From NCBI GenBank assembly GCA_009780065.1, contig WRAS01000002.1, forward strand, positions 73,916 to 137,915: a stretch of 64,000 nucleotides of DNA. Direction: 5' to 3'. Source of the DNA: Bacillota bacterium (GTDB taxonomy: Bacteria > Bacillota > Clostridia > Christensenellales > UBA1242). Made by a program: the position numbers and the translations under genes. Every line of letters begins with the position of its first letter. Within the stretch, counting starts at the first letter, position 1. This document shows positions 8,748-26,270 of this stretch, one piece after another. The notes beneath the pieces were generated by a model. It was not told the origin of the DNA, did no database searches, and saw nothing but the letters and a program-made list of their open reading frames with translations.

Positions 8748-10766
8748 TTAACTTACTGCCTCTTCTTCTCTGGCAACCTTACTCTTTACGACCTTTGTTG
8801 CGAAACTCTCACCCTTGTTAAAGTTCGCATGCTTGGAAATGTATTCCTTTCGGCTTTCAATATTGTCGCCCATAAGGGTTGTAATCAACTTCTCGGCATC
8901 CGCAATATCATCAATCGTAACCTTGCACAATTTTCGTGACTTTGGATCCATAGTGGTTTCCCAAAGTTGATCCGCATTCATCTCCCCAAGACCCTTGTAA
9001 CGTTGCACCGTGCCCTTTTGCTTGGCGGTCAGTTGCCTTAATTCATCTTCATCATACGCATATGCCGAGAAATCTTTTCGATATAATTTGTACAACGGCG
9101 GCATTCCAATATAAACATGCCCCTCGGTAATCAAGTCCTTCATATAACGATATATAAAAGTCAACAATATAGCACGAATATGCGCACCATCCTGGTCCGC
9201 GTCCGCCATGATAATTACTTTGTGGTATTTAAGGTTCTCCAGATTAAAGTCCTCGCCGATACCAGTTCCAAGCGCAGATATGATTGTTCGAAATTCTTCG
9301 TTATCCAAGACCTGATCCAGACGCTTTTTCTCGGCATTCAATGGTTTTCCACGCAGAGGCAATATCGCTTGAATCTGTCGATCACGTGCAACCTTGGCGG
9401 TTCCGCCCGCACTATCCCCCTCTACAATAAATAGTTCATTCAGTTCCGGACGTCTGCCTGTACAACTGGATAACTTTCCTATCAAGATTCCACCGTCAAT
9501 ACTGTTCTTTGCACGTGTAATTTCTTTTGCACGACGCGCAGCCTCGCGCACACGTGCGGCACTTTTGGCCTTGTTCAATATTGCATCAAATAATTGTTTC
9601 TTTTTTGTATCTTTTGCGATGTCTTTGAAATGTTCAATCAAACTGGCGTATGCGAATTGTTCTACCTCGGTTTTAGCCTCGGGATTCCCCAACTTTGTTT
9701 TGGTTTGCCCCTCGAACTGGACCTCGCGCATCTTCAGTGACAATACTGCAGTCAAACCCTCGCGAAAATCTTCACCCAACAACGCTGCCTCTTTATCCTT
9801 TACCATTCCATTTTGTTTTGCAATTTGGTTAAACGCACGTGTTAATGCCATTTTAAACCCAGTCTCGTGCGTCCCACCCTCGCTGGTTGGAATATTGTTT
9901 ACGTAAGAAAACACACTTTCTGAATATGAATCATTGTGTTGGATAGAAAAAGCAATCTTTGTGGTTGTACCATCTCCTTCGCACAGAAATGGTTTCGCAT
10001 ATATTGGGGTTTTGTCCTCGTTCAAATACTGGACAAAGTCACTAAGCCCTCCGTCAAATTTATACTCCACCCTTGCTATATGTCCATCTTCATTGTCATC
10101 TTCTTCTACACGGTCATCTATAAAATCTATCTGAATACCTTTGTTAAGGAATGCCAATTCCTTTAGCCGTTTATTAACCGTGTCGTTGGAAAAGGTCGCA
10201 CTCTTAAACATTGCTTTGTCCGGTAAAAATTTTACATATGTTCCTTGCTTGTCTGTTTTACCGACAACCTTTAATGGTGCCTCGGACGCACCGTACTGAG
10301 TCTTTCTATCTTTACCTTCACCTGTGGTCTTTGGCGAAAATCTAATAAAGTGATTCTTGCCATCCTTAAATACATTAACTTCGGTCCATGCAGACAGGGC
10401 ATTCGTAACAGACGCACCCACGCCGTGCAAACCACCACTATATGAATAACTGTCTCCACCAAATTTTCCACCAGCATGCAGTTGGGTAAACACAACCTCC
10501 ACCCCACTAACCTTCAGTTGCGGGTGTGTGTCCACCGGTATACCCCGACCATTGTCTTCGACCGAGGCACTGCCATCTTTGTGTAATGTTACCACCATTT
10601 TGGTACCGTGACCATTCGCCAATTCGTCTATAGCGTTGTCCACAATCTCCCACAACAAATGGTGCAACCCCTTGGTTCCTGTTGTACCGATGTACATACC
10701 CGGACGCATACGAACTGCGTTAAGACCCTCTAGCACCTGTATCTTCGATGAAGTATATTCTGCCAT
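8748..10766 (-). CDS. type IIA topoisomerase subunit B (GyrB/ParE family)
   Basis: Motifs IQVLEGLNAVRMRPGMYIGTT, LHHLLWEIVDNAIDE and the Toprim motif FIVEGDSAGG. Directly upstream of the A subunit. Confidence 0.9.
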   Translation of the reverse strand: MAEYTSSKIQVLEGLNAVRMRPGMYIGTTGTKGLHHLLWEIVDNAIDELANGHGTKMVVTLHKDGSASVEDNGRGIPVDTHPQLKVSGVEVVFTQLHAGGKFGGDSYSYSGGLHGVGASVTNALSAWTEVNVFKDGKNHFIRFSPKTTGEGKDRKTQYGASEAPLKVVGKTDKQGTYVKFLPDKAMFKSATFSNDTVNKRLKELAFLNKGIQIDFIDDRVEEDDNEDGHIARVEYKFDGGLSDFVQYLNEDKTPIYAKPFLCEGDGTTTKIAFSIQHNDSYSESVFSYVNNIPTSEGGTHETGFKMALTRAFNQIAKQNGMVKDKEAALLGEDFREGLTAVLSLKMREVQFEGQTKTKLGNPEAKTEVEQFAYASLIEHFKDIAKDTKKKQLFDAILNKAKSAARVREAARRAKEITRAKNSIDGGILIGKLSSCTGRRPELNELFIVEGDSAGGTAKVARDRQIQAILPLRGKPLNAEKKRLDQVLDNEEFRTIISALGTGIGEDFNLENLKYHKVIIMADADQDGAHIRAILLTFIYRYMKDLITEGHVYIGMPPLYKLYRKDFSAYAYDEDELRQLTAKQKGTVQRYKGLGEMNADQLWETTMDPKSRKLCKVTIDDIADAEKLITTLMGDNIESRKEYISKHANFNKGESFATKVVKSKVAREEEAVS

Positions 10767-10860
10767 AATGGCAGTGTATCAAAAAAAATCCATTTTGGCA
10801 AAGAAAAGATTTATCGATATGTTGTATATTATGCAAAACAAAAGACACAACGGGTTGATA

Positions 10861-11262
10861 TTATTCAATTACTGTTACGTAAATAAACCTCGGTCTATGC
10901 TCGTTATATTCTAAATCAAGCGCAAAAATCGTAATTGTAACATATCCCATTGTAATCGCGGTTATCGTAAATGTCGGCGACTTTGAAAAATTGATAACCC
11001 CCGTTCTGTTTACTTCTACCCTTGATATTGCTTGATAGCAATCAATACGAATCAAATTTGCCAAACTCTGACCAACCCTCAATGTCGGGTATGGATGCAA
11101 TACTTGGATTGATTCAGTTACACCTACCCTAACTGGCTCCTCTGGATGCCCACGCGAGAACAAATCCGGCCCAATAATCAACCCCACCATACCAACCGCA
11201 CACGCAAGCAACACAACACCAACCTTTATCTTAATCCAAGATCCTTTGTCGAGTTTTGACAT
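10861..11262 (-). CDS. hypothetical membrane-anchored protein
   Basis: MSKLDKGSWIKIKVGVVLLACAVGMVGLII N-terminal anchor followed by a beta-rich domain. Confidence 0.5.
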   Translation of the reverse strand: MSKLDKGSWIKIKVGVVLLACAVGMVGLIIGPDLFSRGHPEEPVRVGVTESIQVLHPYPTLRVGQSLANLIRIDCYQAISRVEVNRTGVINFSKSPTFTITAITMGYVTITIFALDLEYNEHRPRFIYVTVIE

Positions 11263-11313
11263 AATATGTAGTATATAGTACAACACAGATAAAAGTAAAA
11301 TAAAAAATCATTT

Positions 11314-11835
11314 TTATTGCAATTCTTGCGTAAATCCGCTGTCTAATCCACTTAAACCTTTTTGTAACTTCATTATTTCATTATATGAATACAGACCTTT
11401 TCCATCAAACAAATAATCTGCTAGTTTTGATTTTGGTGTCCAAACCTGTTCTTGTCGAAGCGCCGAAAAATCTTTAACTTCTGGAACTAATACGCGGTCA
11501 GTTCCATAATAACCAAACCCATCCAGTGGATGATATTTATATTCTTGCCTACATCGTTTGACACAGCCACGACCACGTTCAACTGGCACAAGCGCACTTA
11601 TTTCACCTTGACCTTTGATCTTTTTATACACCATACCTTCATTTGTATAATGTACATCAAATTGACCAGTTTCTGGATTCTTTCCCTTACTTACTTCTAC
11701 CCCACTACTGTCTACATATAATTCAGATTCCCGATAGACTGGCAGGTTCGGGAATCGCTTCGCAACACGATCTTGCAAATCACTTATAAGTGTTGTTAAC
11801 TTTGACGGCATTACGTCATATGGTAATCTTCTCAT
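11314..11835 (-). CDS. hypothetical protein
   Basis: Uninterrupted 173-codon ORF with no recognisable motif. Confidence 0.55.
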   Translation of the reverse strand: MRRLPYDVMPSKLTTLISDLQDRVAKRFPNLPVYRESELYVDSSGVEVSKGKNPETGQFDVHYTNEGMVYKKIKGQGEISALVPVERGRGCVKRCRQEYKYHPLDGFGYYGTDRVLVPEVKDFSALRQEQVWTPKSKLADYLFDGKGLYSYNEIMKLQKGLSGLDSGFTQELQ

Positions 11836-11972
11836 TTCACATTATATGATAACAGTAGACCAAAGTCAATATTCAAAAGTTTTTCTGTAATTTAAATTAA
11901 TTGACATTTTATAATCCCGGGTGTAATTATTGGTTACAAGGGGCATACTAGCCCACAAAGGAGAAATTAATT

Positions 11973-12359
11973 ATGGGAATCGTAAGTGCAAAACCAATCA
12001 AAATCAAAAACCCAGAAAACGCAGTCATCGCAAACGGAACAGTAACAACCTGCAAATATGCAGGAGAAGCCAGAACCGGAATTGGTCCATTTGCCAAATC
12101 CACACATTACTACAAAGTATTTATCCATGTTGACGGTCTGGCAAAACCATTGGTTCTTAAGGTCAAAGAAAAAGAAGGTATGAATTTGGGTGTTGTGAAT
12201 GACATGAAATCTTTGGGCAAAATGTTCGGCGGCAAAAAAAGCATGCCAGTTCAAGCAGGCGCACCAATCCAAGTCATGTACGACAAAACAAAGCCAAAAA
12301 AGTGCATGATATACGAAACACCAACAGCAGACCAACCAATGCCACAACCACAACAATAA
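11973..12359 (+). CDS. hypothetical protein
   Basis: AAAGGAGA RBS about 8 nt upstream of the ATG. 128 aa. Confidence 0.6.
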   Translation: MGIVSAKPIKIKNPENAVIANGTVTTCKYAGEARTGIGPFAKSTHYYKVFIHVDGLAKPLVLKVKEKEGMNLGVVNDMKSLGKMFGGKKSMPVQAGAPIQVMYDKTKPKKCMIYETPTADQPMPQPQQ

Positions 12360-12371
12360 TTGAAATGGTAC

Positions 12372-12401
12372 TTGACAACATGCATCATCATATAGTATAA
12401 T
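12372..12401 (+). promoter_or_regulatory. sigma-70 promoter of the GS-like operon leader
   Basis: TTGACA (12372-12377), 18 nt spacer, TATAAT (12396-12401). Confidence 0.5.
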
Positions 12402-12407
12402 ATAGTT

Positions 12408-12443
12408 ATGAAAATCAGAAATCGAGAGCAACAGCAGACGTAA
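12408..12443 (+). CDS. candidate leaderless leader peptide MKIRNREQQQT (three consecutive Gln codons)
   Basis: The ATG lies 7 nt after the -10 box. CAA CAG CAG sits at 12429-12437 and the stop at 12441-12443. The ORF overlaps strand 1 of the alternative hairpins (see findings). Confidence 0.35.
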   Translation: MKIRNREQQQT

Positions 12444-12502
12444 TGTGTATAGGTAACATCCCTATGCACATTTAATGTTGCTTGGGGATTTCAATTAATT
12501 CG

Positions 12503-12527
12503 AAACACCCAAGCCAGGGTGTTTTTT
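12503..12527 (+). terminator. intrinsic terminator/attenuator upstream of the GS-like gene
   Basis: AAACACCC (12503-12510) pairs with GGGTGTTT (12517-12524), with a 6 nt loop and a T-run to 12527. Confidence 0.6.
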
Positions 12528-12553
12528 AAATTAATTTAACAAGGAGAAATTAA

Positions 12554-13726
12554 ATGAAAAAAGATGATATCTTACACAAATTAAAGGATGACAAGTTCCA
12601 TTCATTAAATGTTTATTACGTAACACCATACGGTGAATTACGAACTGGTCTAGATGTTCCAGTCAGCGAAGCCGCAGGAATTTTGGACAGTGGTTTCACA
12701 ATTGACCCCGCAGGTATCGACAGAACTATAAAGGGTGGCACCATGGCGGACGTAACCATATTGCCAGACATCAAATCATTCCGCGAAATTCCATCTATGG
12801 ATCATGACGGACTTCGGGTTGCACATATTTTTGGTGACATTTTCGGAAACAATGGCAAAGCACATCCACTGTGCCCGCGTGGTACACTTAAAAAATCACT
12901 TGCGGACATTCTAATGGCGGATGAAAAATTTATTGTTGGATTGGAAAACGAATATTATGTTCGTACCAACGGTGAATTAACTGGAGAGAACGGATACGGA
13001 CTAGAATCCCCCGACGACCCATTGACAAGACTACGCAGATTAACAATGCATGATATAATTAGTGCCGGTATTGATGTAACCAAGAGCCACAAAGAATGTG
13101 GTAAGAGTCAATACGAATACGTACTAAAGCATGCTGATGCCCTGACTGCCGCAGATAACTATCTATTGGCAGATGCAATATCAAGATACCGTGCTGGACT
13201 TCATGGATACTCAATAGACCGCTCCCCTTTTATGGGAAGCGACAACCCCGTTAATTCCGACCACATAAACATGTCAATCGAAAACGGTGTAAATTCATTC
13301 CTAGAGGGCGATGGAATTTCCCATGCTGCAAAATTTTTCGGCGAAGGAGTTCTTGATAACAATGCAATCATCACAGCACTTACGAATACCACAGCAAATT
13401 CTTATGCTGCACTTGAAAAACTTGGGAAATTTACTGGAATGGGGGATTCACGTATGGAAATAATTCGCTCGAAAAAAGGTGTTCTTGAATACCGTACTTC
13501 CGACAGATCTATGTGTCCACACAACACACTTGCTGCTATACTAGGTGCAGGTAGGTCGTCAGCAGTCGTGGCTGGAGGAAAATATCGTAACGCACCAAAA
13601 AATTTCGACGGTTCAATCAAAACATTAGAATCCGCACTCGCAGACGGTATAACACTTGGGCTTCCAAACGAATTATTCGAATTCCACATTAACAACCGCA
13701 AAAACGGAATAGGGAGAGATAAATGA
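12554..13726 (+). CDS. glutamine synthetase family protein (divergent, 390 aa; gamma-glutamyl/amide ligase-like)
   Basis: KSHKECGKSQYEYVLKHADALTAADNYLLADAISRY...SPFMGSDNPVNSDHINMSI resembles the GS catalytic core (HHEVAxGQxEI...ADxL...KP..G.NGSG.H.H.S). AAGGAGA RBS upstream. Confidence 0.75.
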   Translation: MKKDDILHKLKDDKFHSLNVYYVTPYGELRTGLDVPVSEAAGILDSGFTIDPAGIDRTIKGGTMADVTILPDIKSFREIPSMDHDGLRVAHIFGDIFGNNGKAHPLCPRGTLKKSLADILMADEKFIVGLENEYYVRTNGELTGENGYGLESPDDPLTRLRRLTMHDIISAGIDVTKSHKECGKSQYEYVLKHADALTAADNYLLADAISRYRAGLHGYSIDRSPFMGSDNPVNSDHINMSIENGVNSFLEGDGISHAAKFFGEGVLDNNAIITALTNTTANSYAALEKLGKFTGMGDSRMEIIRSKKGVLEYRTSDRSMCPHNTLAAILGAGRSSAVVAGGKYRNAPKNFDGSIKTLESALADGITLGLPNELFEFHINNRKNGIGRDK

Positions 13727-14793
13727 TAAAGGTCGAAATTAATTTAAGTGCTATTCGTCGTAATATTTTAAAAATGAAAGCCAAATTAAAACCTGGGACA
13801 AAGTTTTGTCCGGTATTAAAAGCCAATGGATATCGTTTCGGTGATGACAAAGTCGCACCAGCAATAGAAGACATCGTGGATTACTTTGGTTGCTTTCACA
13901 TTACCGAACTAGAACGCTTGCGCAATGCGGGCATAACAAAGCCAATTCTACTACTTGGTGTTTGCGAGGATTTTGGTCGTGCAATAAAGAATAAAGCAAC
14001 AATTACAATTACCAGCGTTTTCGAAGCCAAAGCCCTTGCAAAATTTGCGGGGGAAAACAAACTAAACTGTCCCATCCATATCGAGGTCGATACCGGCATG
14101 GAACGATTTGGGATTGCCACAATAGACGAATTAAAAGAAATTTTAGACATCGCAGGCAAATCAAAGTTTATTGATATTACTGGTCTATTTACGCATTTTG
14201 CATATGCCACAACCGAGAATAAAGACATGGTGGATGCACAAATTCGGGCATTCAAACCTTTTGCAACAATGCTTAAAAAGAAATATCAAAATGCAATTAT
14301 CCACGCAGCAAGCAGCGGAACCGCAGAATATTCAGACGCACAATTTGATATGGTTCGTGGGGGATTTTTCATCTACGGTTCACTTGTTGATGGATATGAA
14401 AATTGCCTAAAAGCCACTTCTAACATCGTTGCAATCCGTCATGTAAAAGCAGGCACCAAAATAGGCTACAGCGGAACCAAAACCGTGGACAAAGACACAA
14501 CAATTGGTCTTGTTGCAGCCGGTTATGCCGATGTAATTAATTTCAAACTTTTTGCAACCGCCCCCCTATTCGTGAATGACAAACCATGTTATGTATTAGG
14601 CAGAATTTGTATGGACAGTTGCATGATAGATGTCAGCCATATCAAAGACCCGCTTGGAAAAACCGTTACGGTCTATGACAATAAACCTAGCATGACTCTG
14701 TTAGACCGTGGGAACGAAAACGGTCATACAGGCAGTTTAATCTTAGCACTTGATTTCAACCGTGCGGATGTAACATACATCACAGATAAATAG
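13723..14793 (+). CDS. alr: alanine racemase family PLP enzyme
   Basis: Motifs PVLKANGYRFG (PLP lysine), VAAGYADV and GRICMDSCMIDV. ATGA overlap with the preceding gene. Confidence 0.8.
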   Translation: MIKVEINLSAIRRNILKMKAKLKPGTKFCPVLKANGYRFGDDKVAPAIEDIVDYFGCFHITELERLRNAGITKPILLLGVCEDFGRAIKNKATITITSVFEAKALAKFAGENKLNCPIHIEVDTGMERFGIATIDELKEILDIAGKSKFIDITGLFTHFAYATTENKDMVDAQIRAFKPFATMLKKKYQNAIIHAASSGTAEYSDAQFDMVRGGFFIYGSLVDGYENCLKATSNIVAIRHVKAGTKIGYSGTKTVDKDTTIGLVAAGYADVINFKLFATAPLFVNDKPCYVLGRICMDSCMIDVSHIKDPLGKTVTVYDNKPSMTLLDRGNENGHTGSLILALDFNRADVTYITDK

Positions 14794-14795
14794 GG

Positions 14796-14825
14796 TTGAC
14801 ATCCCAGACGCAACTAGCGTATATT
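14796..14825 (+). promoter_or_regulatory. sigma-70 promoter immediately after the alr stop codon
   Basis: TTGACA (14796-14801), 18 nt spacer, TATATT (14820-14825). Confidence 0.5.
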
Positions 14826-14832
14826 AAAAGGT

Positions 14833-14916
14833 ATGAACATGAATATGACCACGAAAGTTGGGTACACAGTACATCATCACATCATGCACGGATTGCCGTG
14901 TGTGATTATTTCGTAA
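14833..14916 (+). CDS. candidate leaderless leader peptide MNMNMTTKVGYTVHHHIMHGLPCVIIS (His-codon cluster)
   Basis: The ATG lies 8 nt after the -10 box. CAT CAT CAC ATC ATG CAC sits at 14872-14889 and the stop at 14914-14916. The 3' part of the ORF can pair with the terminator 5' arm. Confidence 0.35.
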   Translation: MNMNMTTKVGYTVHHHIMHGLPCVIIS

Positions 14917-14953
14917 TGTCATATTAAAATTCCAAGCGAAACAAAAACACACA

Positions 14954-14989
14954 AACCGCAATCCGACACAAATGGATTGCGGTTTTTTT
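14954..14989 (+). terminator. strong intrinsic terminator/attenuator
   Basis: AACCGCAATCC (14954-14964) pairs with GGATTGCGGTT (14974-14984): 11 bp stem, 9 nt loop, seven T residues. Confidence 0.7.
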
Positions 14990-15037
14990 GTGGTATTAAT
15001 TCATCGTTCAAAACAAAAATAGGAGATATAAACAAAA

Positions 15038-15983
15038 ATGAAAGCGAAACCTTTCTATGGTACAGGACTTGGTGGATATGGAAAGCCCACCCAAGGGTTG
15101 GGGTTGGAAACCCTAGGACTTCAATTTGCAACAATACAAATGGCGCGGGACAACAACCAAGACAGCATTTTATGGCACCTTGGAACCGAGGGCTATGGTG
15201 TAACATCCGAACAACGCGACAGAACAATCGGCGAAATGTCTGATGTTGCCGACAAAATTAATTGTGGCATGTCCAAACTAAAGGTTCTGGACACAAACGG
15301 TCAATGGAGGTCACCCCATTTCGCTGGACTTCTTCCCTGCATTCCAACACAATGGACGCGATCAATATAACGACATATATGCAAAAACACAAGAACGTTT
15401 TGGCGACTTTAGGGGCATCGACGGAATTGAATATGTATTTGACTATCCCTTGCTTCAAACTGCCCAAGTTGTTGATTTGGTGGAAAACTTTGGTGTAACC
15501 GCCCAAACCGGCTGGGACAATTCAAAGAAATCCCAAGAAACCGAACAGTGTATGGATTTCAACCAACTTGTCATTGCACTTTTGAAAAAGCGTTTGGGCG
15601 AAAAATTTTTTATTGATTTACTTAAAAACCGTTATCCAGAAATCCAATTGGGTTCTGTGAACGTACCCGCCGCAATTGACTTTGCAACCGGAAATCAACA
15701 GTCTCCCTACACAATTGCCGAGGGTTCAACCAGACCACGTATAGACGAACGTTTCAGTAAATTCTGTGCTCGCACAATCGGCATGAAAGGATATGACAAG
15801 GCAATAGAACGAATAGACAGAAACATAGTCGAGCGATTCGAAAGTTTATACGGCGAAATCCCGAGTCAGAAGAAAGCCAGAATCGCTACTGGGATGGATT
15901 ATTCGCAAGAATGTATCAGATCAAAACAATCAACAACAATTGCAAAAGTTGACCAGATTCAAAATCTAATGGGGGTTATATAA
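15038..15983 (+). pseudogene. unknown ~315 aa protein interrupted by a +1 frameshift (or an assembly error)
   Basis: The ORF at 15038-15370 is in frame 2. Frame 0 is open from 15282 and reads VNGGHPISLDFFPAFQHNGRDQYNDIYAKTQERFGDF..., running into the ORF that ends at 15983. There is no ATG/GTG and no RBS before the TTG at 15450. Confidence 0.5.
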
Positions 15984-16702
15984 TGAAAATAATTTATGAA
16001 ATTTATGATCTTGGGGGTAATCCAACCGCAATAATTACCAAGAATGTCGATACACAAACAGGTATCAATGTATCAAAGCAAATCATGCAAAAATATCCCG
16101 TGGTCGAGCAAGTAGCAATCATCGAAAACGTCAAAGACGATACCTGTACCTTCCGCATGGCGGGGGAAGAATTCTGTGGCAATGCAATACGTGCAGTTGC
16201 ATATTTTATGCGAAAAAACTATGGAAAACCATGTTGTACAATTATAACTTGTGGTATTAAGATAAATGCGACAAAATGTGATGGTAAAACCAGTGAAATT
16301 GTTTTGCAAAAGTCTACCCTACTACGTGGAACAAGGATTGTTAATGGTTTGACTTACATCATTATGAATGGAATTACGCACGTAGTTATTCCAGGCAAAG
16401 GTAACGAGAGCCTAGCCAAGCAAGTTAAAAAGATAGCATCTAAATTCGGTCTTGTGGGCTCGGCATTTGGGGTAATGTTTTTGGATGGTGATAAACTTAA
16501 CCCTTTTGTTTGGGTGGAAACTGCGCAAACATTTTTTAACGAAACAGCATGTTTAAGCGGTAGTATTGCAGTCGCTATTTATATAAAAAAAGACAAAGCC
16601 GAAATAATCCAACCAACAAACCAACCATATACAATCACGTTTGATGGCGATAATATATATGCAAAAGGAAAAGTCGCATTTATCAAAAGCGACGAAATCT
16701 AA
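15983..16702 (+). CDS. DapF-fold (diaminopimelate epimerase-like) PLP-independent amino-acid racemase/epimerase
   Basis: Motifs GGNPTAII, AGEEFCGNAIRAVAYF and NETACLSGSIAVA match the two Cys-containing active-site segments of the DapF superfamily. TAATG overlap with the upstream gene. Confidence 0.7.
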   Translation: MKIIYEIYDLGGNPTAIITKNVDTQTGINVSKQIMQKYPVVEQVAIIENVKDDTCTFRMAGEEFCGNAIRAVAYFMRKNYGKPCCTIITCGIKINATKCDGKTSEIVLQKSTLLRGTRIVNGLTYIIMNGITHVVIPGKGNESLAKQVKKIASKFGLVGSAFGVMFLDGDKLNPFVWVETAQTFFNETACLSGSIAVAIYIKKDKAEIIQPTNQPYTITFDGDNIYAKGKVAFIKSDEI

Positions 16703-16707
16703 GGCGT

Positions 16708-17169
16708 TTATACCTTTTCCCAGCGCTTCAATGTCGGAAGATATTCTGTTAACATTGCATGTGCTTGCTCCTTGGTAAAGTTTGTTCCGCTGTCTGCGTT
16801 AAAGTATTCCAAAGTTTCCAACAAACTTTCAATTATTTCCTCTATGGATACGTCATAAGCATATTTGCCATCCACAAAACAATGTGCACAATATTCATGG
16901 TTTAGGCCCTTGTCCTCGTTGGTGCCAAGCACATCAAAGTCCTTCAAAGTCCAGCCACAACTTTGGCAAATAGCAGGCTCTTTGAAAAAGATATTTGCAT
17001 CCACATTAAATTCGTTTACCATCAGTTTAATTGAATCCAAGGTCGGTGTTGTTTCACCATTTTCCCATCGTGAAACCGCCTGGCGCGTTACATGTAATTT
17101 CTCGGCAAATTCTTCTTGTGTTAATCCGGCCTCGTTTCTAATCCCAAGTATTGTTTTTGCAAAATCCAT
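16708..17169 (-). CDS. XRE-family HTH regulator with a C-terminal Cys-rich (zinc-ribbon-like) domain
   Basis: GLTQEEFAEKLHVTRQAVSRWENGETTP motif. GGAGGG RBS before the ATG at 17169. C-terminal CQSCGW...CAHC. Confidence 0.8.
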   Translation of the reverse strand: MDFAKTILGIRNEAGLTQEEFAEKLHVTRQAVSRWENGETTPTLDSIKLMVNEFNVDANIFFKEPAICQSCGWTLKDFDVLGTNEDKGLNHEYCAHCFVDGKYAYDVSIEEIIESLLETLEYFNADSGTNFTKEQAHAMLTEYLPTLKRWEKV

Positions 17170-17267
17170 ATCTCTTCCCTCCAATTTATATGACCCTAGT
17201 TTATTCCTTTTTGAAAATCTAATCAAGCAACTGGTTGTTTCTTTTTTGATATGTGGTATGATGTCTC

Positions 17268-19871
17268 ATGTTTGTTGTAGAGAACATTTCCAAAAAATAT
17301 CGTGCCAAAGACGGAAAAGTTGTGGACGCACTCCGCGATGTCAGTTACACATTCCCCGAACGTGGCATGATTTTCGTGGTGGGCAAAAGCGGAAGCGGAA
17401 AATCCACCATGCTAAATATTCTGGGGTTACTTGATTCATATGACGAAGGCCAATTAATTATAAATGGCAAGTCATGTAAAGACATGAATGAACGCGAACG
17501 CGATATATACCGTGCCCACAACATTGGCTTTGTGTTCCAAGATTTTCATATAATCGAAAAGTATACAATTGGCAAGAACATCAGTCTGCCACTAGAGATA
17601 AAAAACAAAGAAACAAATAAGACCGAAGTTGCAGATGCACTTGCAAAGGTTGGATTGGTGGGTTTTGAAAAACGCAAAAGTACCGAAGTCTCTGGCGGAC
17701 AAAGACAACGTGTGGCGATTGCACGGGCTCTGATAAAAGACCCAAAAATTATTTTGGCGGACGAACCCACAGGAAATCTAGACAGTGTTACCAGCAAAGA
17801 GATTTTTACACTACTAAAAGAACTTTCAAAGGAAAAACTGGTGGTCGTTATCAGCCACGACTTGGACAGTGCCCACGCCTACGCCGATACTATAGTTGAA
17901 CTGGCAGACGGTCAAATTACGGATATATACGCAGGCGAAGGCAATATTGAAACAATCAAATTTATTGGCATTGAAAACATCCCAACAGACACCAGTGAAC
18001 TTGTAAAATCTGGTAAACGGGTTATCCTTGTGCCTGCAACAATTCATGCCACAAATTCGCCACCCCAAAGTATTATCCCTGACATTGCACCGCTCCCCCA
18101 TCGCGTTCGGCTTCCAATATCAAGCGCCTTTCGCCTGTCTCTAATCGGTTTGCGCGCTAAATGGGTTCGCATGGTTTTCATGATTATGCTTGCAATGTTT
18201 GCAACCGCATTTTTCGGGTTTGCGGATATGATCGGGCGATTTGATGTAAATCAAATATTATTAGAGGAGTTGAATCGACTGGATAAAAACTATGTCAGTA
18301 TTGGCATGGATTTTTTACCCGAAGATGCATCTGCCTTAACCGGACGTTGGTATACGCATATGGATACCGATGCATTGGAAAAATTTAATGAACTTGGCAT
18401 ACCGCATGTATTTCGTCGCGACTTTCCTGGCGAAGTAGCTTTTTTCGGAACATACCAAAACATGTTCCGCGGTCATCAACAGGCATTTTCACGAGGATTT
18501 CGTGGTGTAATCGAGGCAGACCCTCGTGACCTTGGATTTGATTTAATCTATGGACGTATGGCGGAAAACGCAAATGAAATTGTCATTACCAGTTATCACT
18601 TAGAGGCTTTCAAGCGTTTTGGCTACATTGTACGTACAAGCAATACCTCAATTGAGGTAAATTCGTTCGACGAATTGGCACAAGCTGAATTAACAATGCA
18701 TCGCAGACTTGATTTTCACGATTGGCTGACGTTACAGGTTGTTGGCGTTATAGACGTGGATTTATCAAAATTCCGAGAAATCTTGGACGTGAATCAATTC
18801 GTACAAAATCCAACTGCTCACCAACGAACATTGTTACGTGAATTCAATCTTAAAAAGGTTGATCATGCGAATATGATGTTTTCTGTGCCTGGGTTTTATA
18901 ATTCAATTTTTTATGCAATTCAATGGCCACATCATTTTGAACTTCAAATAGATTCTTTTTACGAGGTCGAGCATGAAAATATTCGTAACTTTGTACTTAA
19001 TGAAAACGCATTTAATCATTTTCCAGAAATTACCTTTTGCACAACCATTAACAGTGCGCAAGATTTTACAGGTTACCAAGCAATAATAAGCACCGAGTTA
19101 CTTGACCAATTGCTACCAACAGGTGAAACGTGGAATGGACGAACACTGCATCTGCGAACACGCACACATATACAGCAGATAGGTTTTGTTTGGACAGACA
19201 TCGAACTTGAAATCATTGGTATTATAGACTACGGTTTGAATGTTCTGGGACTTGGGCACGCAATTTATCATAAAATTACCCCAGATATCTCTATGACAGT
19301 AATCGTTCCAAACATAACAACATCCTCTGAACGATTAAATCTCATCCGCCAAATCAATTCCCTTTCTGATTTTGACCTTGGTCGTGGCGGTTATCATGCA
19401 TTTATCATATTCACACCATCCAGCTTCGAGATATATGGTCTTGATAGATACTTTTCATTGTTTGTAACCATATTTGCCGCAATTGCTCTGGCGTTCTGTA
19501 TATTTTCCATGATTCTGATTTATGGATTTATTAGTGGGTCAATTAACGCCCGAAAGAAAGATATCGGTATATTACGTTCACTTGGGGCGGGACGACGGGA
19601 CGTTGTCAAAATATTTGCAATCGAAAGCATCATTATTGCTATTCCCAAAATTATCCTTGGGATAATTACATGTTACATAGGTTACCGTGTTGCCACGCAT
19701 TTCTTTGTAAGTGAACTTGGCGAAATTGCAAGTCGCTACCGTCTGATATCATTCGGCATGCGACAAATAATATTAATATCTGTTGCATCCATTGTTGCTA
19801 TTGCACTTGCAATTACCTTGCCTATTATCAGAATTGCCCGCAAACAACCGTTAGAGGTCATACGTGGTTGA
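17268..19871 (+). CDS. fused ABC transporter ATP-binding/FtsX-like permease protein (MacB-type)
   Basis: Walker [10 protein letters not shown], signature [15 protein letters not shown], Walker [13 protein letters not shown]-terminal FtsX-type TM bundle ([18 protein letters not shown]). Confidence 0.85.
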
Positions 19872-20283
19872 TTTAATTCGTGTATTATAAAGCCAATTTT
19901 AATGGTATAATAATGTCACTTATAATCGTGTACTTTATGTTCCTTTTGCAAAAAACATATACGCAACAAGTGGACTTTGGGCGTCCTTAGTAATGTCGTT
20001 TGACGTTGTAAACCCAAATCCATTCTTGATTCCAACACATGCAGATATCGCATTAATTGGTAATTTTCCAAATTATTTCCAAGGATTTACCAACAAATTC
20101 CACGTCCAAGTGAATATTAGCAATAACACAGGTGCAACCCATCCATTTAACGCACTATGGAGGCATTGGCGGTGGACAAATAAGCAATACTGAATATGTT
20201 GAAATTACTCTCCTCTCGCCTCGCGCAAACACAGGTAATCGGGAATATCGAACCACCACAGTCACTGTCCCATTTGTATGGAG

Positions 20284-21009
20284 TTAAACAATTCCAAAAG
20301 CAACCTCAACATGTGCGGTGACCTCTATATCGTTAGACCTAATTGGTGTGCCGTCTACTGAATAACTTCTATAACTGTATCCACCGAAACCATAGTAATT
20401 TGTCTCTTTTACCGAGATAATTTTAATATCACCAATATCTGTCACCGCAGACAACAGCAGTGCTTTTTGTTCTGCGGATTCAATTGCTTTTACAAGGGCA
20501 GCATTATACGCTGACGTGTTATCCGAGATGCCAAATTGTACGCCGCCTACACTGGTAACGCCTATTGCGGCTGCAAGGTCGATTATTTTACCCACATTAT
20601 TAATGTCCCGCACTTTTACATTCAATTGATTACTTACTCTGTGCCCCGACACTCTGTCATAATGACCATAATCATGCTCAGGGTATATATTAAACCAACT
20701 GGTACATATACTATCTTCTGATATACCCTGCTCCCCCAACATCTTTATCAGCCGCTGAACTCTTTGTGTATTTTCTTTTTGTGCTTCCGCCAAGTTTCTA
20801 TTTCTTGTTTCCACCGTTAAATTAATATTTGCAAAATCTGGTCTTACATGAACCACACCCACACCCGTTACTGTTATATTGGAATATTGTACCTGATTAA
20901 CACTGGTTGCCATAACTGTATTAGATTGACTGGCACCACCAATCAACGTTATCCCAACAGCCAAAATTGAAAGAGTCATCACCAACGTACATAAAATATA
21001 TTTCTTCAT
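20284..21009 (-). CDS. SIMPL/DUF541 domain protein with signal peptide
   Basis: MKKYILCTLVMTLSILAVG signal sequence. The pattern VTGVGVVHVRPDFANINLTVETRNRNLAEAQKENTQRV is typical of SIMPL/BP26. Confidence 0.75.
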   Translation of the reverse strand: MKKYILCTLVMTLSILAVGITLIGGASQSNTVMATSVNQVQYSNITVTGVGVVHVRPDFANINLTVETRNRNLAEAQKENTQRVQRLIKMLGEQGISEDSICTSWFNIYPEHDYGHYDRVSGHRVSNQLNVKVRDINNVGKIIDLAAAIGVTSVGGVQFGISDNTSAYNAALVKAIESAEQKALLLSAVTDIGDIKIISVKETNYYGFGGYSYRSYSVDGTPIRSNDIEVTAHVEVAFGIV

Positions 21010-24279: not shown

Positions 24280-24356
24280 GGATCTGTACCCCAATTGGCA
24301 GAGGGACACGACTAAGGATCGTGACAGTGGAGGTTCAAGTCCTCTCAGATCCACCA
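24280..24356 (+). tRNA. element-encoded 77 nt tRNA-like gene, anticodon AAG (Leu-type D arm and A73, but only a 5 nt variable loop)
   Basis: Acceptor GGATCTG/CAGATCC (7 bp perfect). D arm CCC-CAATTGGCAGA-GGG. Anticodon arm CACGA-CTAAGGA-TCGTG. T arm GGAGG-TTCAAGT-CCTCT. A73 plus an encoded CCA. Confidence 0.6.
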
Positions 24357-24400
24357 CAAATTGTGCTTTTGTTCAGTAAAATGCGCAATAAAACCACAAG

Positions 24401-24422
24401 ACCGCCCGCAAAGGCGGTTTTT
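24401..24422 (+). terminator. intrinsic terminator after the tRNA-like gene
   Basis: ACCGCC / GGCGGT stem with a CGCAAA loop and a T-run. Confidence 0.6.
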
Positions 24423-24499
24423 GTGTGCTTCGTTATTCAGTTGTCAATCTTACTTGTGAGTGTCGCCGTTTGGGCGATTTCACACATCTTTCACACATT

Positions 24500-25741
24500 C
24501 TAATTGCAAATGCGCAAGCGGCTCGGTGGGCTAGCAAAATCAAAGTGTCCATCAAGACTAGCCACCGCCGTTTGTTTGTCTTCATCGTCAACAGAGAGAT
24601 AGTATTTCATTGTCACAGTACAGTCGACATGCCCCAATAACTCTTGTATTGTCTTCATGTTTGCGCCTTGCTTCAAAAGATGCGATGCAAAACTGTGTCT
24701 GAATTTGTGCAAGTGTCCTTTGATTCCAAGACGACGACATAGGCGTGTGACCGTGTTCGACAATCTGTCGGGCTTTATCATCTTACCCATTTTGTCGACA
24801 AAGACATAGTCGCTATAATTGTGATTGTAAAATATTGCCTTGTTGTTTTCGGCAGTCAATTCTATCTGTCTAAATAGAATGTGTTGCGATTGCATGCTGA
24901 GTGGTATAGTTCTCTCGCTACTATCTGATTTCAGTTCTGTATATGCTTTCAAGCCTTCACCCGCAATTGGCAAAACTTTTTCTCTAACTCGTATAGTTCG
25001 GTTATCGAAATTTATCGCCGACCATTTCAACCCGACAATTTCAGAACGGCGCATGCCCGTCCACATTGCAAATTGAATTGGCAGGCAAGCCCCTTCATTT
25101 TCCAACGCTTCCCACAGTTGTCGCATTTCGTCTTTCGAGAAAAACTCTGCACGGCGCTGATTTACTTTCGGACTGTCGATGTTTTCAAAGGCATTGTGCG
25201 CCACAAACTTTTTGCGCTTTGCATATTTGAAAGCGGGTTTGTAGAAGCAAAGTATCTTCTTTATCGTGCAATCTGTAAACGGCTTGCCTTCACGTGTTTT
25301 CAATTTGCGTAAGTAGTCCACAAACGCTTCCGCATCAAATTCTGTAAAATCGGTTAGTTTCATGTCTTCACGTCCACGCATGCGCAAAAACTCTCTCATT
25401 TTATCGGGGTGGCTTGTCGTGTAGATGTAATAGACTAAGTCCGTCAATTTCTTCTCAGTCCTTCTGTGGTCGACATACTTTTGCAACAGTTGCATAACTG
25501 TCAAATTCGCATAGTCCACGTTCAAGCCGCGCCGTTTTGATAGTTCGGCTGAAAACTCGTCTATAAACGCTTTCTGCATGTCTTCCACACGTCGTTTGCC
25601 GCCACGATGATATTCGGCAAGGGTAAGTCCGGAGTTGCGCCACGCTTGTTTTCGCTTCACACCTTCGGCGTAGTCAATGACTATGCCCACGTAAACCTTG
25701 CTTCCAATCTTCTTCTCAATAATTCTGCTATTTAATTTCAT
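24500..25741 (-). CDS. tyrosine recombinase/integrase
   Basis: C-terminal catalytic region [37 protein letters not shown] plus an upstream [13 protein letters not shown] (Arg I) motif. Confidence 0.9.
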
Positions 25742-26073
25742 ACTAACCTCCTAATTTTAAGTTCTCGTGCTTTCAGTCCATAGTCCAATTCTCTCGTCAC
25801 GAATTGCGCCAAGTGAATTTTTGTGACCCTATGCTCTTTACCAATCTTAATTGTGGGTATGCGCCCAAGCAAGTCATACATTTTCGTGCGACCTAGACCC
25901 AAGATTGTCGCCGCTTGTGAAAGCGGTACCAAGTCTGGCAAGTCATTGAACAAGTCACCAGTCTCTATGTTGTTATAGCAACCCAGTTTGTAACCTGTGG
26001 CTATGCCCGACATAAAAAGCATTGTGCGTTCGTCTGTCTCACCAAAGAATTGATGTGTGATAATTTCGTTCAT
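25738..26073 (-). CDS. excisionase-like HTH DNA-binding protein
   Basis: [33 protein letters not shown] matches the excisionase/MerR-type HTH_17 pattern. AAGGAG RBS before the ATG at 26073. 4 nt overlap with the integrase start. Confidence 0.6.
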
Positions 26074-26270
26074 TTCGTCTCCTTTTATTTTGAATTTCAG
26101 ACAGTGCGGAAAGTATGGGTGCGTGTCCACGCACCCAAAACTTGTGTCGCCACGTCACACCGAAAGTGTGTCAGTCTGTTGTCGTATTATAATACCCCAG
26201 CAACGTCTTTTCTGCATTTCGGGGCAAGTTAGCCGTCCGACTAAACGGCAATTTTTGAAACTTTTTTGTT

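Follow-up and report, generated by a model that had tools for sequence, protein, structure and literature searches.

Leader-peptide attenuation of transcription is textbook material in enterobacteria, where hisL carries seven His codons, and is thought to be rare in Firmicutes, in which T-boxes and repressors dominate. The relevant passages of Ashniev et al. (2022; PMC9413887) predict His leader-peptide attenuators in the Bacillus cereus group, in Peptostreptococcaceae/Lutispora and in Erysipelotrichales. We analysed a 64,000-nt stretch of DNA from a Bacillota bacterium (contig WRAS01000002.1; hereafter the window), in which a leader beginning at position 14796 lies between alr and two genes, for a synthetase-like protein and a racemase. 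We consider, with a probability of about 0.85, that this leader is a ribosome-mediated transcription attenuator that senses charged tRNA-His. The first-pass annotation of the window had proposed control by His-tRNA charging through attenuation, and the proposal is supported by in silico switching, by conservation in eight further loci and by the histidine-related genes downstream.

The leader and its predicted switch

The alr open reading frame (ORF; Ala_racemase_N/C) occupies 13723–14793 and ends in TAG at 14791–93. It is followed by these elements:

14796–14825, + strand: sigma-70-type promoter, TTGACA (14796–14801), 18-nt spacer, TATATT (14820–14825)
14833–14916, + strand: leader short ORF (sORF), 27 codons plus TAA (14914–16), peptide MNMNMTTKVGYTVHHHIMHGLPCVIIS
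14872–14889, + strand: proposed regulatory His codons, CAT CAT CAC (14872–14880) and CAC (14887–14889), full run CAT CAT CAC ATC ATG CAC
14881–14906, + strand: hairpin 1:2 (anti-antiterminator), 11 bp, 14881–91 with 14896–906, ATCATGCACGG / attg / CCGTGTGTGAT
14890–14964, + strand: antiterminator 2:3, GGAUUGC (14890–96) with GCAAUCC (14958–64) and GUGUGU (about 14898–14904) with ACACAC (about 14947–53)
14953–14989, + strand: intrinsic terminator 3:4, 13-bp stem AAACCGCAATCCG / acacaaa / TGGATTGCGGTTT, then a T run
15021–15040, + strand: Shine-Dalgarno (SD) sequence AGGAG (15021–25) and ATG (15038) of the first structural gene

The promoter, the ATG at 14833 and the His cluster were all found where the first-pass annotation had placed them. 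The promoter scores 11/12 against the consensus; in the 6 kb that were scanned, the + strand has only one other site as good. Since the ATG at 14833 sits 7 nt after the −10 element, a leaderless start of the leader mRNA is plausible. Two ordinary protein genes of the window, at 11835 and 37572 on the − strand (173 and 595 aa), likewise have their ATG 5–7 nt after a strong −35/−10 pair; leaderless translation is therefore plausibly used in the source organism, and the pattern suggests that leaderless mRNAs are more widely used there. The sORF could also be translated from alr read-through transcripts, given that AAAGG precedes three in-frame ATGs (14833, 14839 and 14845). At the 2% His content of the genome, a run of three His residues in a 27-codon ORF has a chance probability of about 3e-4, and for the leader sORFs in general the value is about 1–3e-4 per sORF.

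Three helices can form downstream of the His run. The terminator, previously described with 11 bp, is present and was lengthened by our scan to 13 pairs (14953–14965 with 14973–14985, one G-U included; −17.6 kcal/mol), followed by seven T residues ending at 14989. The complementarity claimed for GGATTGC (14890–96) and TGTGTG (14899–904) with GCAATCC (14958–64) and CACACA (14948–53) was likewise found, and that of the segment after the His run with the terminator 5′ arm is equalled by 1/1000 dinucleotide shuffles. The resulting 2:3 helix has an energy of −21 to −23 kcal/mol and is supported by an inner helper stem. The hairpin at 14881–14906, found by the terminator scan, is an addition to the earlier description and completes the classical 1:2 / 2:3 / 3:4 arrangement: without a ribosome it sequesters the anti-terminator strand, and a ribosome placed on the His run covers its 5′ arm. 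For the leader RNA as a whole the predicted folding energy is −52 kcal/mol, with z = −4.8 relative to 200 dinucleotide-shuffled sequences.

When the full-length RNA was folded at equilibrium under ribosome constraints, every fold retained the terminator and the result was uninformative; transcripts truncated before the terminator 3′ arm were therefore folded instead, with only the RNA downstream of an assumed ribosome edge (A site +11 nt) included. With the A site on the His codon at 14872, 14875 or 14878, helix 2:3 forms and the terminator 5′ arm is paired with a probability of 0.62–0.69. The helix is blocked when the A site is on the fourth His codon (14887) or on the stop codon, where the paired probability of the 5′ arm falls to 0.10 and 0.22, respectively. 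In the absence of a ribosome, strand 2 is held by hairpin 1:2. Structure prediction with a ribosome on the His codons, which had been suggested as a check, thus separates stalls at the first three codons, which free 2:3, from the stop position, which does not. The SD sequence of the next gene (15021–25) lies outside the switch helices, and the switch overlaps the intrinsic terminator.

In the mechanism we propose, transcription from the promoter at 14796–14825 would start at or beside the A of ATG 14833, and a 70S ribosome would load once the leaderless 5′ end emerges. When His-tRNA is scarce, the ribosome would stall with its A site on one of the His codons at 14872–14880, covering the 5′ arm of 14881–14906; GGAUUGC and GUGUGU would then be free to pair with the nascent terminator 5′ arm, and RNA polymerase would read on. 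When His-tRNA is plentiful, the ribosome would reach the stop codon at 14914 and cover the anti-terminator strand, so that the 13-bp terminator forms and transcription ends near 14989. If the sORF is not translated at all, the 1:2 hairpin would keep the anti-terminator strand, and termination would again be the outcome.

Recurrence of the leader ahead of histidine-related genes

Six further loci with an upstream region were taken from contigs carrying relatives of the racemase or of the synthetase-like gene, and three more came from a species-genome scan with the racemase family. A His-run sORF plus a terminator with the same logic is present in 8/9 of these additional loci, 7/8 of which are leaderless by geometry. 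These eight come from termite-gut Bacillota and candidate-phylum bacteria, and all are metagenomic. The leader peptide, the distance from the −10 element to the ATG and, where listed, the genes behind the leader are as follows (aaRS-like, aminoacyl-tRNA synthetase-like):

L017: MNKNLTTEKKKVGFVHHNHARIAVCGNF; 6 nt
L018: MKVFVRTHHHHHLRDC; 6 nt
L004: MDMKFTCIHHHHMRLACGSFVS; 6 nt; aaRS-like gene, racemase, M15 dipeptidase
L011: MNIKRDSFAKGGYMSVHHHGL; 6 nt
L019 (termite-gut metagenome-assembled genome (MAG) Bacillota bacterium Co191P1bin89): MNQSCKFKGIGLHHHHVGKAPHGFICN; 6 nt; hisG and a racemase–M15-dipeptidase fusion
L014: MNFIQRNHHHGS; 30-nt leader with AAGGAG, unlike the other loci; hisG, aaRS-like gene, hisS, racemase
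L023 (Candidatus Shapirobacteria): MTNQLGTIAHHHAN; 7 nt; tRNA-His(GTG) gene, racemase and hisS adjoining
L027 (unclassified MAG): MKLSISFHHHAN; 6 nt; in part as L023

Counting the window, the TTGACA/16–18 nt/TAnAAT promoter arrangement is kept in 9/9 loci, the −10-to-ATG distance is 6–7 nt in 8/9, and a hairpin with a T run follows the sORF in every one. The peptides, of 12–28 residues, have nothing in common except the His run (HHHIMH, HHNH, HHHHH, HHHH, HHH, HHH, HHHH, HHH and HHH); outside the promoter, the His codons and the stems, no sequence is conserved across the loci. One racemase homologue (P0006; L008–L010) lies in another context and has no His leader, and two contigs (L012 and L013) end before the leader region and are uninformative on it.

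Folding of truncated transcripts gave the same result in 9/9 loci: the terminator 5′ arm is sequestered when the ribosome is placed on the first His codons and free when it is placed at the stop codon. L014 reaches this switching through an additional helix in the cascade. In the duplex-versus-shuffle test several loci are individually modest (8, 21, 42, 63, 81 and 268 of 1000 shuffles); combined over seven loci the test gives P = 9e-6, which becomes 9e-5 when the close relative L017 is left out. Co-variation in relatives, also suggested as a check, was found as well. The anti-terminator pair GGAUUGC:GCAAUCC of the window and L017 is replaced by GGCAAAGC:GCUUUGCC in L019 and by CUUGUGUC:GGCACAAG in L011, and the pairing co-varies also in L018, L014, L023 and L027; among terminator pairs, L023/L027 show AAAGCCCCG:CGGGGCUUU versus AAAUCCCC:GGGGAUUU. 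The RNA ATGCACGGATTGC(C/T)GTGTGTG is common to the window and L017, in which a 2-nt indel puts the peptides in different frames. The RNA is kept across this frame change, and the constraint therefore lies on the RNA and the His run rather than on the peptide.

Two further observations concern individual leaders. In L011, a second hairpin and T run (AACATTTAACGG...CCGTTAGATGTTTT; 9040–9075) follows the first terminator, giving tandem terminators in the leader; it resembles the terminator of L014 (1118–1150). In L023 (2780–3156) and L027 (2852–3222), leaderless sORFs ending in ...HHHAN* and a terminator lie upstream of a tRNA-His(GTG) gene, an unusual place for an attenuator, and a conserved inverted repeat, CTTTAGG..AAATTT....CTAAAGA, separates the terminator from the tRNA.

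These comparisons bear on a simpler explanation, in which the hairpin of the window is the plain terminator of the operon of alr and a glutamine-synthetase-like gene, and the promoter-like site and His-rich sORF are chance features. The alr stop codon (14793) is only 160 nt upstream with no other terminator between, and promoter-like sites are not enriched across the scanned region (11 found, 17.6 expected), as this explanation would have it. Yet the combination of promoter, sORF, His run and terminator is found again in eight diverged loci, where the first-pass annotation would have given up its idea had the sORF and GGATTGC repeat been absent, and the HHH run has a chance of only about 1e-4 per sORF. 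In L004 and L014 the gene upstream of the leader is on the opposite strand, so that the hairpin there is not merely the terminator of a preceding gene, which also counters the notion that it serves alr alone; two other leaders lie upstream of tRNA-His. We find this simpler explanation scarcely credible.

Termination might instead be controlled by another sensor, a protein or a small-molecule-binding RNA (HutP-like, T-box-like or a histidine riboswitch), with the sORF incidental or serving only to load ribosomes. The alternative structures would let any stabilizing factor act, and in the passages on his genes of PMC9413887, T-boxes or the HisR repressor are the means mostly used in Firmicutes. 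Against this, a search of the region 9000–21000 at E ≤ 1 gave no match to any Rfam family, His_leader (RF00514) and T-box included, and over the whole window Rfam returned nothing except one tmRNA and one tRNA. No conserved sequence was seen beyond promoter, His codons and stems; the structures vary from locus to locus, yet the His run is kept, as is its spacing from the stop codon and anti-terminator; and a HutP-like gene was seen in none of the loci. Another sensor is therefore highly unlikely.

The genes behind the leader also point to histidine. In the window the controlled unit comprises two genes, after which the next gene (16708–17226) is on the other strand:

15038–15983, + strand: class-Ic aaRS-like gene; 0 frame from 15038 to CCC (15314–16), +1 frame from ATT (15318) to TAA (15981–83)
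15983–16702, + strand: HisR/CntK-like cofactor-independent racemase, 239 aa; PF26317, DapF fold

The start of the racemase gene overlaps the stop of the preceding one (TAATG), with GGGGG 7 nt upstream. A histidine racemase had been guessed at from the DapF fold, and the best family matches of the protein are indeed HisR (6e-22) and CntK (5e-13) in NCBIfam; it also matches PDB 9cr6/9cr1 and Pfam CntK_N. The protein scores 78.5 bits for HisR, where the equivalog cut-off is 400, and 49.1 for CntK, where it is 300; it is under both cut-offs and forms a separate subfamily. Its EFCGNA and ETACLSGS motifs align with the catalytic C67 and C209 of HisR, and the Cys residues are invariant in the family alignment. 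So are E42, E63 and E187, which align with HisR Glu49, Glu65 and Glu206, the residues proposed to bind imidazole (PMC11602996). About a dozen relatives were found in a collection of 5.8 billion proteins, all of them metagenomic.

Because the leader of relatives drives hisG, hisS and a tRNA-His gene, the racemase probably serves to salvage histidine, converting D-His to usable L-His when histidine is short. We infer that all genes under the His leader relate to the supply or the charging of histidine, which fits induction by low His-tRNA. VanX-type M15 D-Ala-D-Ala dipeptidases accompany the racemase in two loci, fused to it in L019 (4992–6305) and following it, ahead of a ZnuABC-type transporter, in L004 (4551–5871). 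This linkage may point to D-amino acids being released from dipeptides and salvaged.

The first gene of the unit is harder to place by sequence. Its product has no match in Pfam, NCBIfam or PDB sequences, and a PDB profile search by sequence was not significant. An exhaustive profile search found about 20 representatives of the family among 1.84 billion protein clusters; a scan of 185,579 species genomes found none, a metagenome scan returned only contigs already known, and a word-based protein search gave 4 proteins. An AlphaFold model built with 18 family sequences reached pLDDT 92 and pTM 0.90 (confidence scores of the model), whereas 6 sequences gave pLDDT 39 only. In Foldseek, 8/9 of the best matches of this model are tyrosyl- or tryptophanyl-tRNA synthetases (TyrRS, TrpRS) and one is a glutamyl-tRNA synthetase, all class I; the top matches have probabilities of 0.90–1.0 and a TM score of about 0.5, with E-values of only 1e-3 to 2e-2. 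Cyclodipeptide synthases come next in the list. One family member (P0155) is fused to a TyrRS C-terminal S4 domain. HIGH and KMSKS signatures were not recognized by eye, without a structural alignment, and the HIGH position reads GLGL. The modelled fold suggests a new class-Ic synthetase-like family whose members probably deal with a tRNA.

The neighbouring enzymes and an exporter raise the question of whether the sORF might instead encode a functional small peptide. On this account a His/Cys-rich product, metal-binding or the precursor of a modified peptide, would be processed by the neighbouring enzymes and exported by an ATP-binding cassette (ABC) transporter, with a leaky terminator setting the stoichiometry. 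Precursor-peptide genes often have partial terminators downstream, a Cys follows the His run in several of the leader peptides, and a bacteriocin-type/MacB-like ABC exporter is encoded nearby (17268–19871). However, the transporter is absent from the other loci, hisG, hisS or tRNA-His stands behind the same leader in relatives, and the peptides, 12 to 28 residues long, conserve nothing but the His run; between the window and L017 the frame differs while the RNA is kept. In addition, free amino acids are the substrates of DapF-fold racemases (PMC11602996). We assign a functional peptide a very small probability.

The sequence features expected of a leader-peptide attenuator were found: tandem His codons, a terminator before the first gene, an anti-terminator that depends on ribosome position in silico, co-variation, and target genes concerned with the same amino acid. 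Several points nevertheless weigh against attenuation by His-tRNA. The predicted transcription start is drawn from promoter geometry, and equilibrium folding with an assumed footprint is a crude proxy for co-transcriptional kinetics. The anti-terminator of L004 is weak, being equalled by 268/1000 shuffles, and a stall on the fourth His codon of the window sORF would block the anti-terminator rather than free it. As there is no terminator between alr and the leader, alr transcripts end at the hairpin as well. It would be paradoxical to induce, during His starvation, an enzyme that can consume L-His, unless the reaction runs from D to L. Finally, all loci are metagenomic.

A candidate +1 frameshift in the first controlled gene

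The first-pass annotation had listed the first gene as an unknown frameshifted gene. The description can be refined, in that the shift is conserved and looks programmed, and the product is aaRS-like. The site is:

15306–15319, + strand: candidate programmed +1 frameshift site, GGAGG TCA CCC CAT, with an SD-like element 3 nt before CCC_C and His (CAT, 15317–19) as the 0-frame A-site codon

The window contains the motif GGAGG-NNN-CCC-CAT a single time (0.00 expected); in the other fetched loci it is confined to the corresponding sites of L011 and L017. It reads GGAGG-TCA-CCC_C in the window, GGAGG-TCG-CCC_C in L017 (5248–5261) and GGAGG-GCA-CCC_C in L011 (9375–9388), and the A-site codon is CAT in 3/3 split genes. 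At the site the split genes encode ...R-S/A-P-H... in the 0 frame and P-I-S/L-L-D/E-F-F-P-A-F in the +1 frame. The orthologues in L004, L014 and L018 are uninterrupted, with S/N-P-I at the site and neither GGAGG nor CCCC. Comparison of the window with L017 showed 4 synonymous differences upstream of CCC in the 0 frame and 0 in each of the others, and downstream of CCC 3 in the +1 frame and 0 in each of the others, as expected if each frame is selected on its own side of the site.

Two other explanations of the interruption were rejected. An assembly error is contradicted by 2980 bases that are identical, with 0 mismatches, in three other samples, and by recurrence of the site in two diverged lineages (L011 and L017). 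A second gene with its own start would need a consistent +1-frame start; L017 has an ATG upstream of the motif, L011 a TTG after it, and the window none.

The arrangement resembles that of prfB, in which a slippery CTTT lies three nucleotides after an SD-like element (PMC12421855). As there, the spacing from the SD-like element to a slippery run of four pyrimidines is exactly 3 nt, and a slow A-site codon follows; the motif has no counterpart in the single-frame orthologues. The present site differs in having CCC_C, read by tRNA-Pro, for CUU_U and a His sense codon for UGA, and the presumed signal would be His-tRNA rather than release factor 2 (RF2). CCC_C is described as a +1-prone tRNA-Pro site in the relevant parts of PMC4519876 and PMC7577736. 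From these features, the +1 shift is likely to be programmed. The odds that it depends on His-tRNA appear about even: with CCC_C and the conserved Pro-Ile given, the 0-frame codon must be CAT, so the His codon could be a by-product.

If it does depend on His-tRNA, a ribosome waiting for His-tRNA at CAT 15317–19 would slip +1, its tRNA-Pro sitting on CCC_C and GGAGG lying three bases back. Full-length aaRS-like protein would be made only then and, by coupling, more racemase; since the start of the racemase gene overlaps the +1-frame stop (TAATG), racemase translation may partly depend on the shift. We tentatively suggest, at somewhat less than even odds, that the operon senses His-tRNA twice, first through the leader peptide and then through the slip at CAT, within a module for D-histidine salvage or His-tRNA supply. 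According to a review of 2016 (PMC5009743), starvation-specific hungry-codon frameshifting was not known from any natural case. Double sensing, if true, would provide the first natural hungry-codon programmed frameshift making a starvation-specific protein, in a module common to termite-gut Firmicutes and candidate-phylum bacteria, and would answer whether cells deliberately use starvation-induced frameshifting.

Surroundings of the unit and comparison with known systems

A second leader in the window, at 12372–12530, has the same build, in agreement with the likeness to a Gln leader that had been pointed out before. It consists of TTGACA/18/TATAAT, an ATG (12408) 6 nt later and the sORF MKIRNREQQQT*, and it precedes the short glutamine-synthetase-like gene and alr. 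Its Gln-codon segment GAGCAACA pairs with UGUUGCUU, and a further pairing is possible between GCUUGGG and CCCAAGC, the latter part of the terminator (ACACCC...GGGUGU, then T6).

Beyond the racemase, an HTH_3/Zn-ribbon regulator (16708–17226, − strand) is divergent from a gene for a fused ABC-ATPase/FtsX protein, MacB-like and bacteriocin-exporter-like (17268–19871, + strand); this pair was not found in the other racemase loci. Farther on, tRNA-Leu(AAG) at 24280–24356 is directly followed by a phage-type integrase (24500–25741, − strand) and an HTH_17 gene, and the region 24280–26130 resembles the boundary of an integrated element. The GyrB protein encoded in the window shares 85–86% identity with proteins of MAGs labelled Firmicutes or Bacillota bacterium, and 70–74% with those of Christensenellaceae/Christensenellales MAGs.

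A family of leader-peptide attenuators in uncultured Clostridia-like and candidate-phylum bacteria would widen the scope of attenuation, and with leaderless leader mRNAs the sensor would need no ribosome-binding site. Such leaders would also assign poorly understood genes, those of the histidine racemase and the synthetase-like family, to the response to low His-tRNA, with D-His salvage as the idea that connects them.

Among known systems, the enterobacterial hisL leader (RF00514) and the trp, thr, leu and phe attenuators share with the window leader a short ORF with a run of cognate codons, the 1:2/2:3/3:4 helices and an intrinsic terminator. The proposed logic is also that of his and trp: a stall leads to read-through, and full translation or none leads to termination. 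In contrast to the enterobacterial his leader, that of the window does not match RF00514, has 3+1 His codons and an sORF without a 5′ untranslated region or SD sequence, belongs to a Clostridia-like Firmicute, and controls an aaRS-like gene and a racemase rather than a his biosynthetic operon.

The candidates of Ashniev et al. (PMC9413887) are closer in phylum. As described in the relevant passages, they too have 3–5 consecutive His codons, terminator and anti-terminator hairpins and no match to the proteobacterial Rfam motif; compared by description, they differ in that they come from cultured species and precede canonical his biosynthesis operons, and those passages describe no leaderless start. 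The leaderless polycysteine sORFs of mycobacteria (Canestrari et al., 10.1101/834739) share with the window leader a first-cistron leaderless sORF and a codon run for one amino acid that acts as a ribosome-stalling sensor; they govern genes of the same amino acid's metabolism, at several loci in parallel. They act on translation, by unmasking a ribosome-binding site, whereas the output in the window would be an intrinsic terminator, and both phylum and amino acid differ. The racemase resembles HisR of F. nucleatum and CntK of S. aureus in its DapF fold, PF26317 assignment, catalytic Cys pair and imidazole-binding Glu residues. Its context differs from theirs in lacking cntL and cntM; the genes linked to this family are hisS, hisG, tRNA-His, an M15 D,D-dipeptidase and the aaRS-like gene. 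The mechanism itself is already known; what is new here is the combination of a leaderless sORF with an intrinsic terminator, the lineages in which it occurs and the unusual His module that it precedes.

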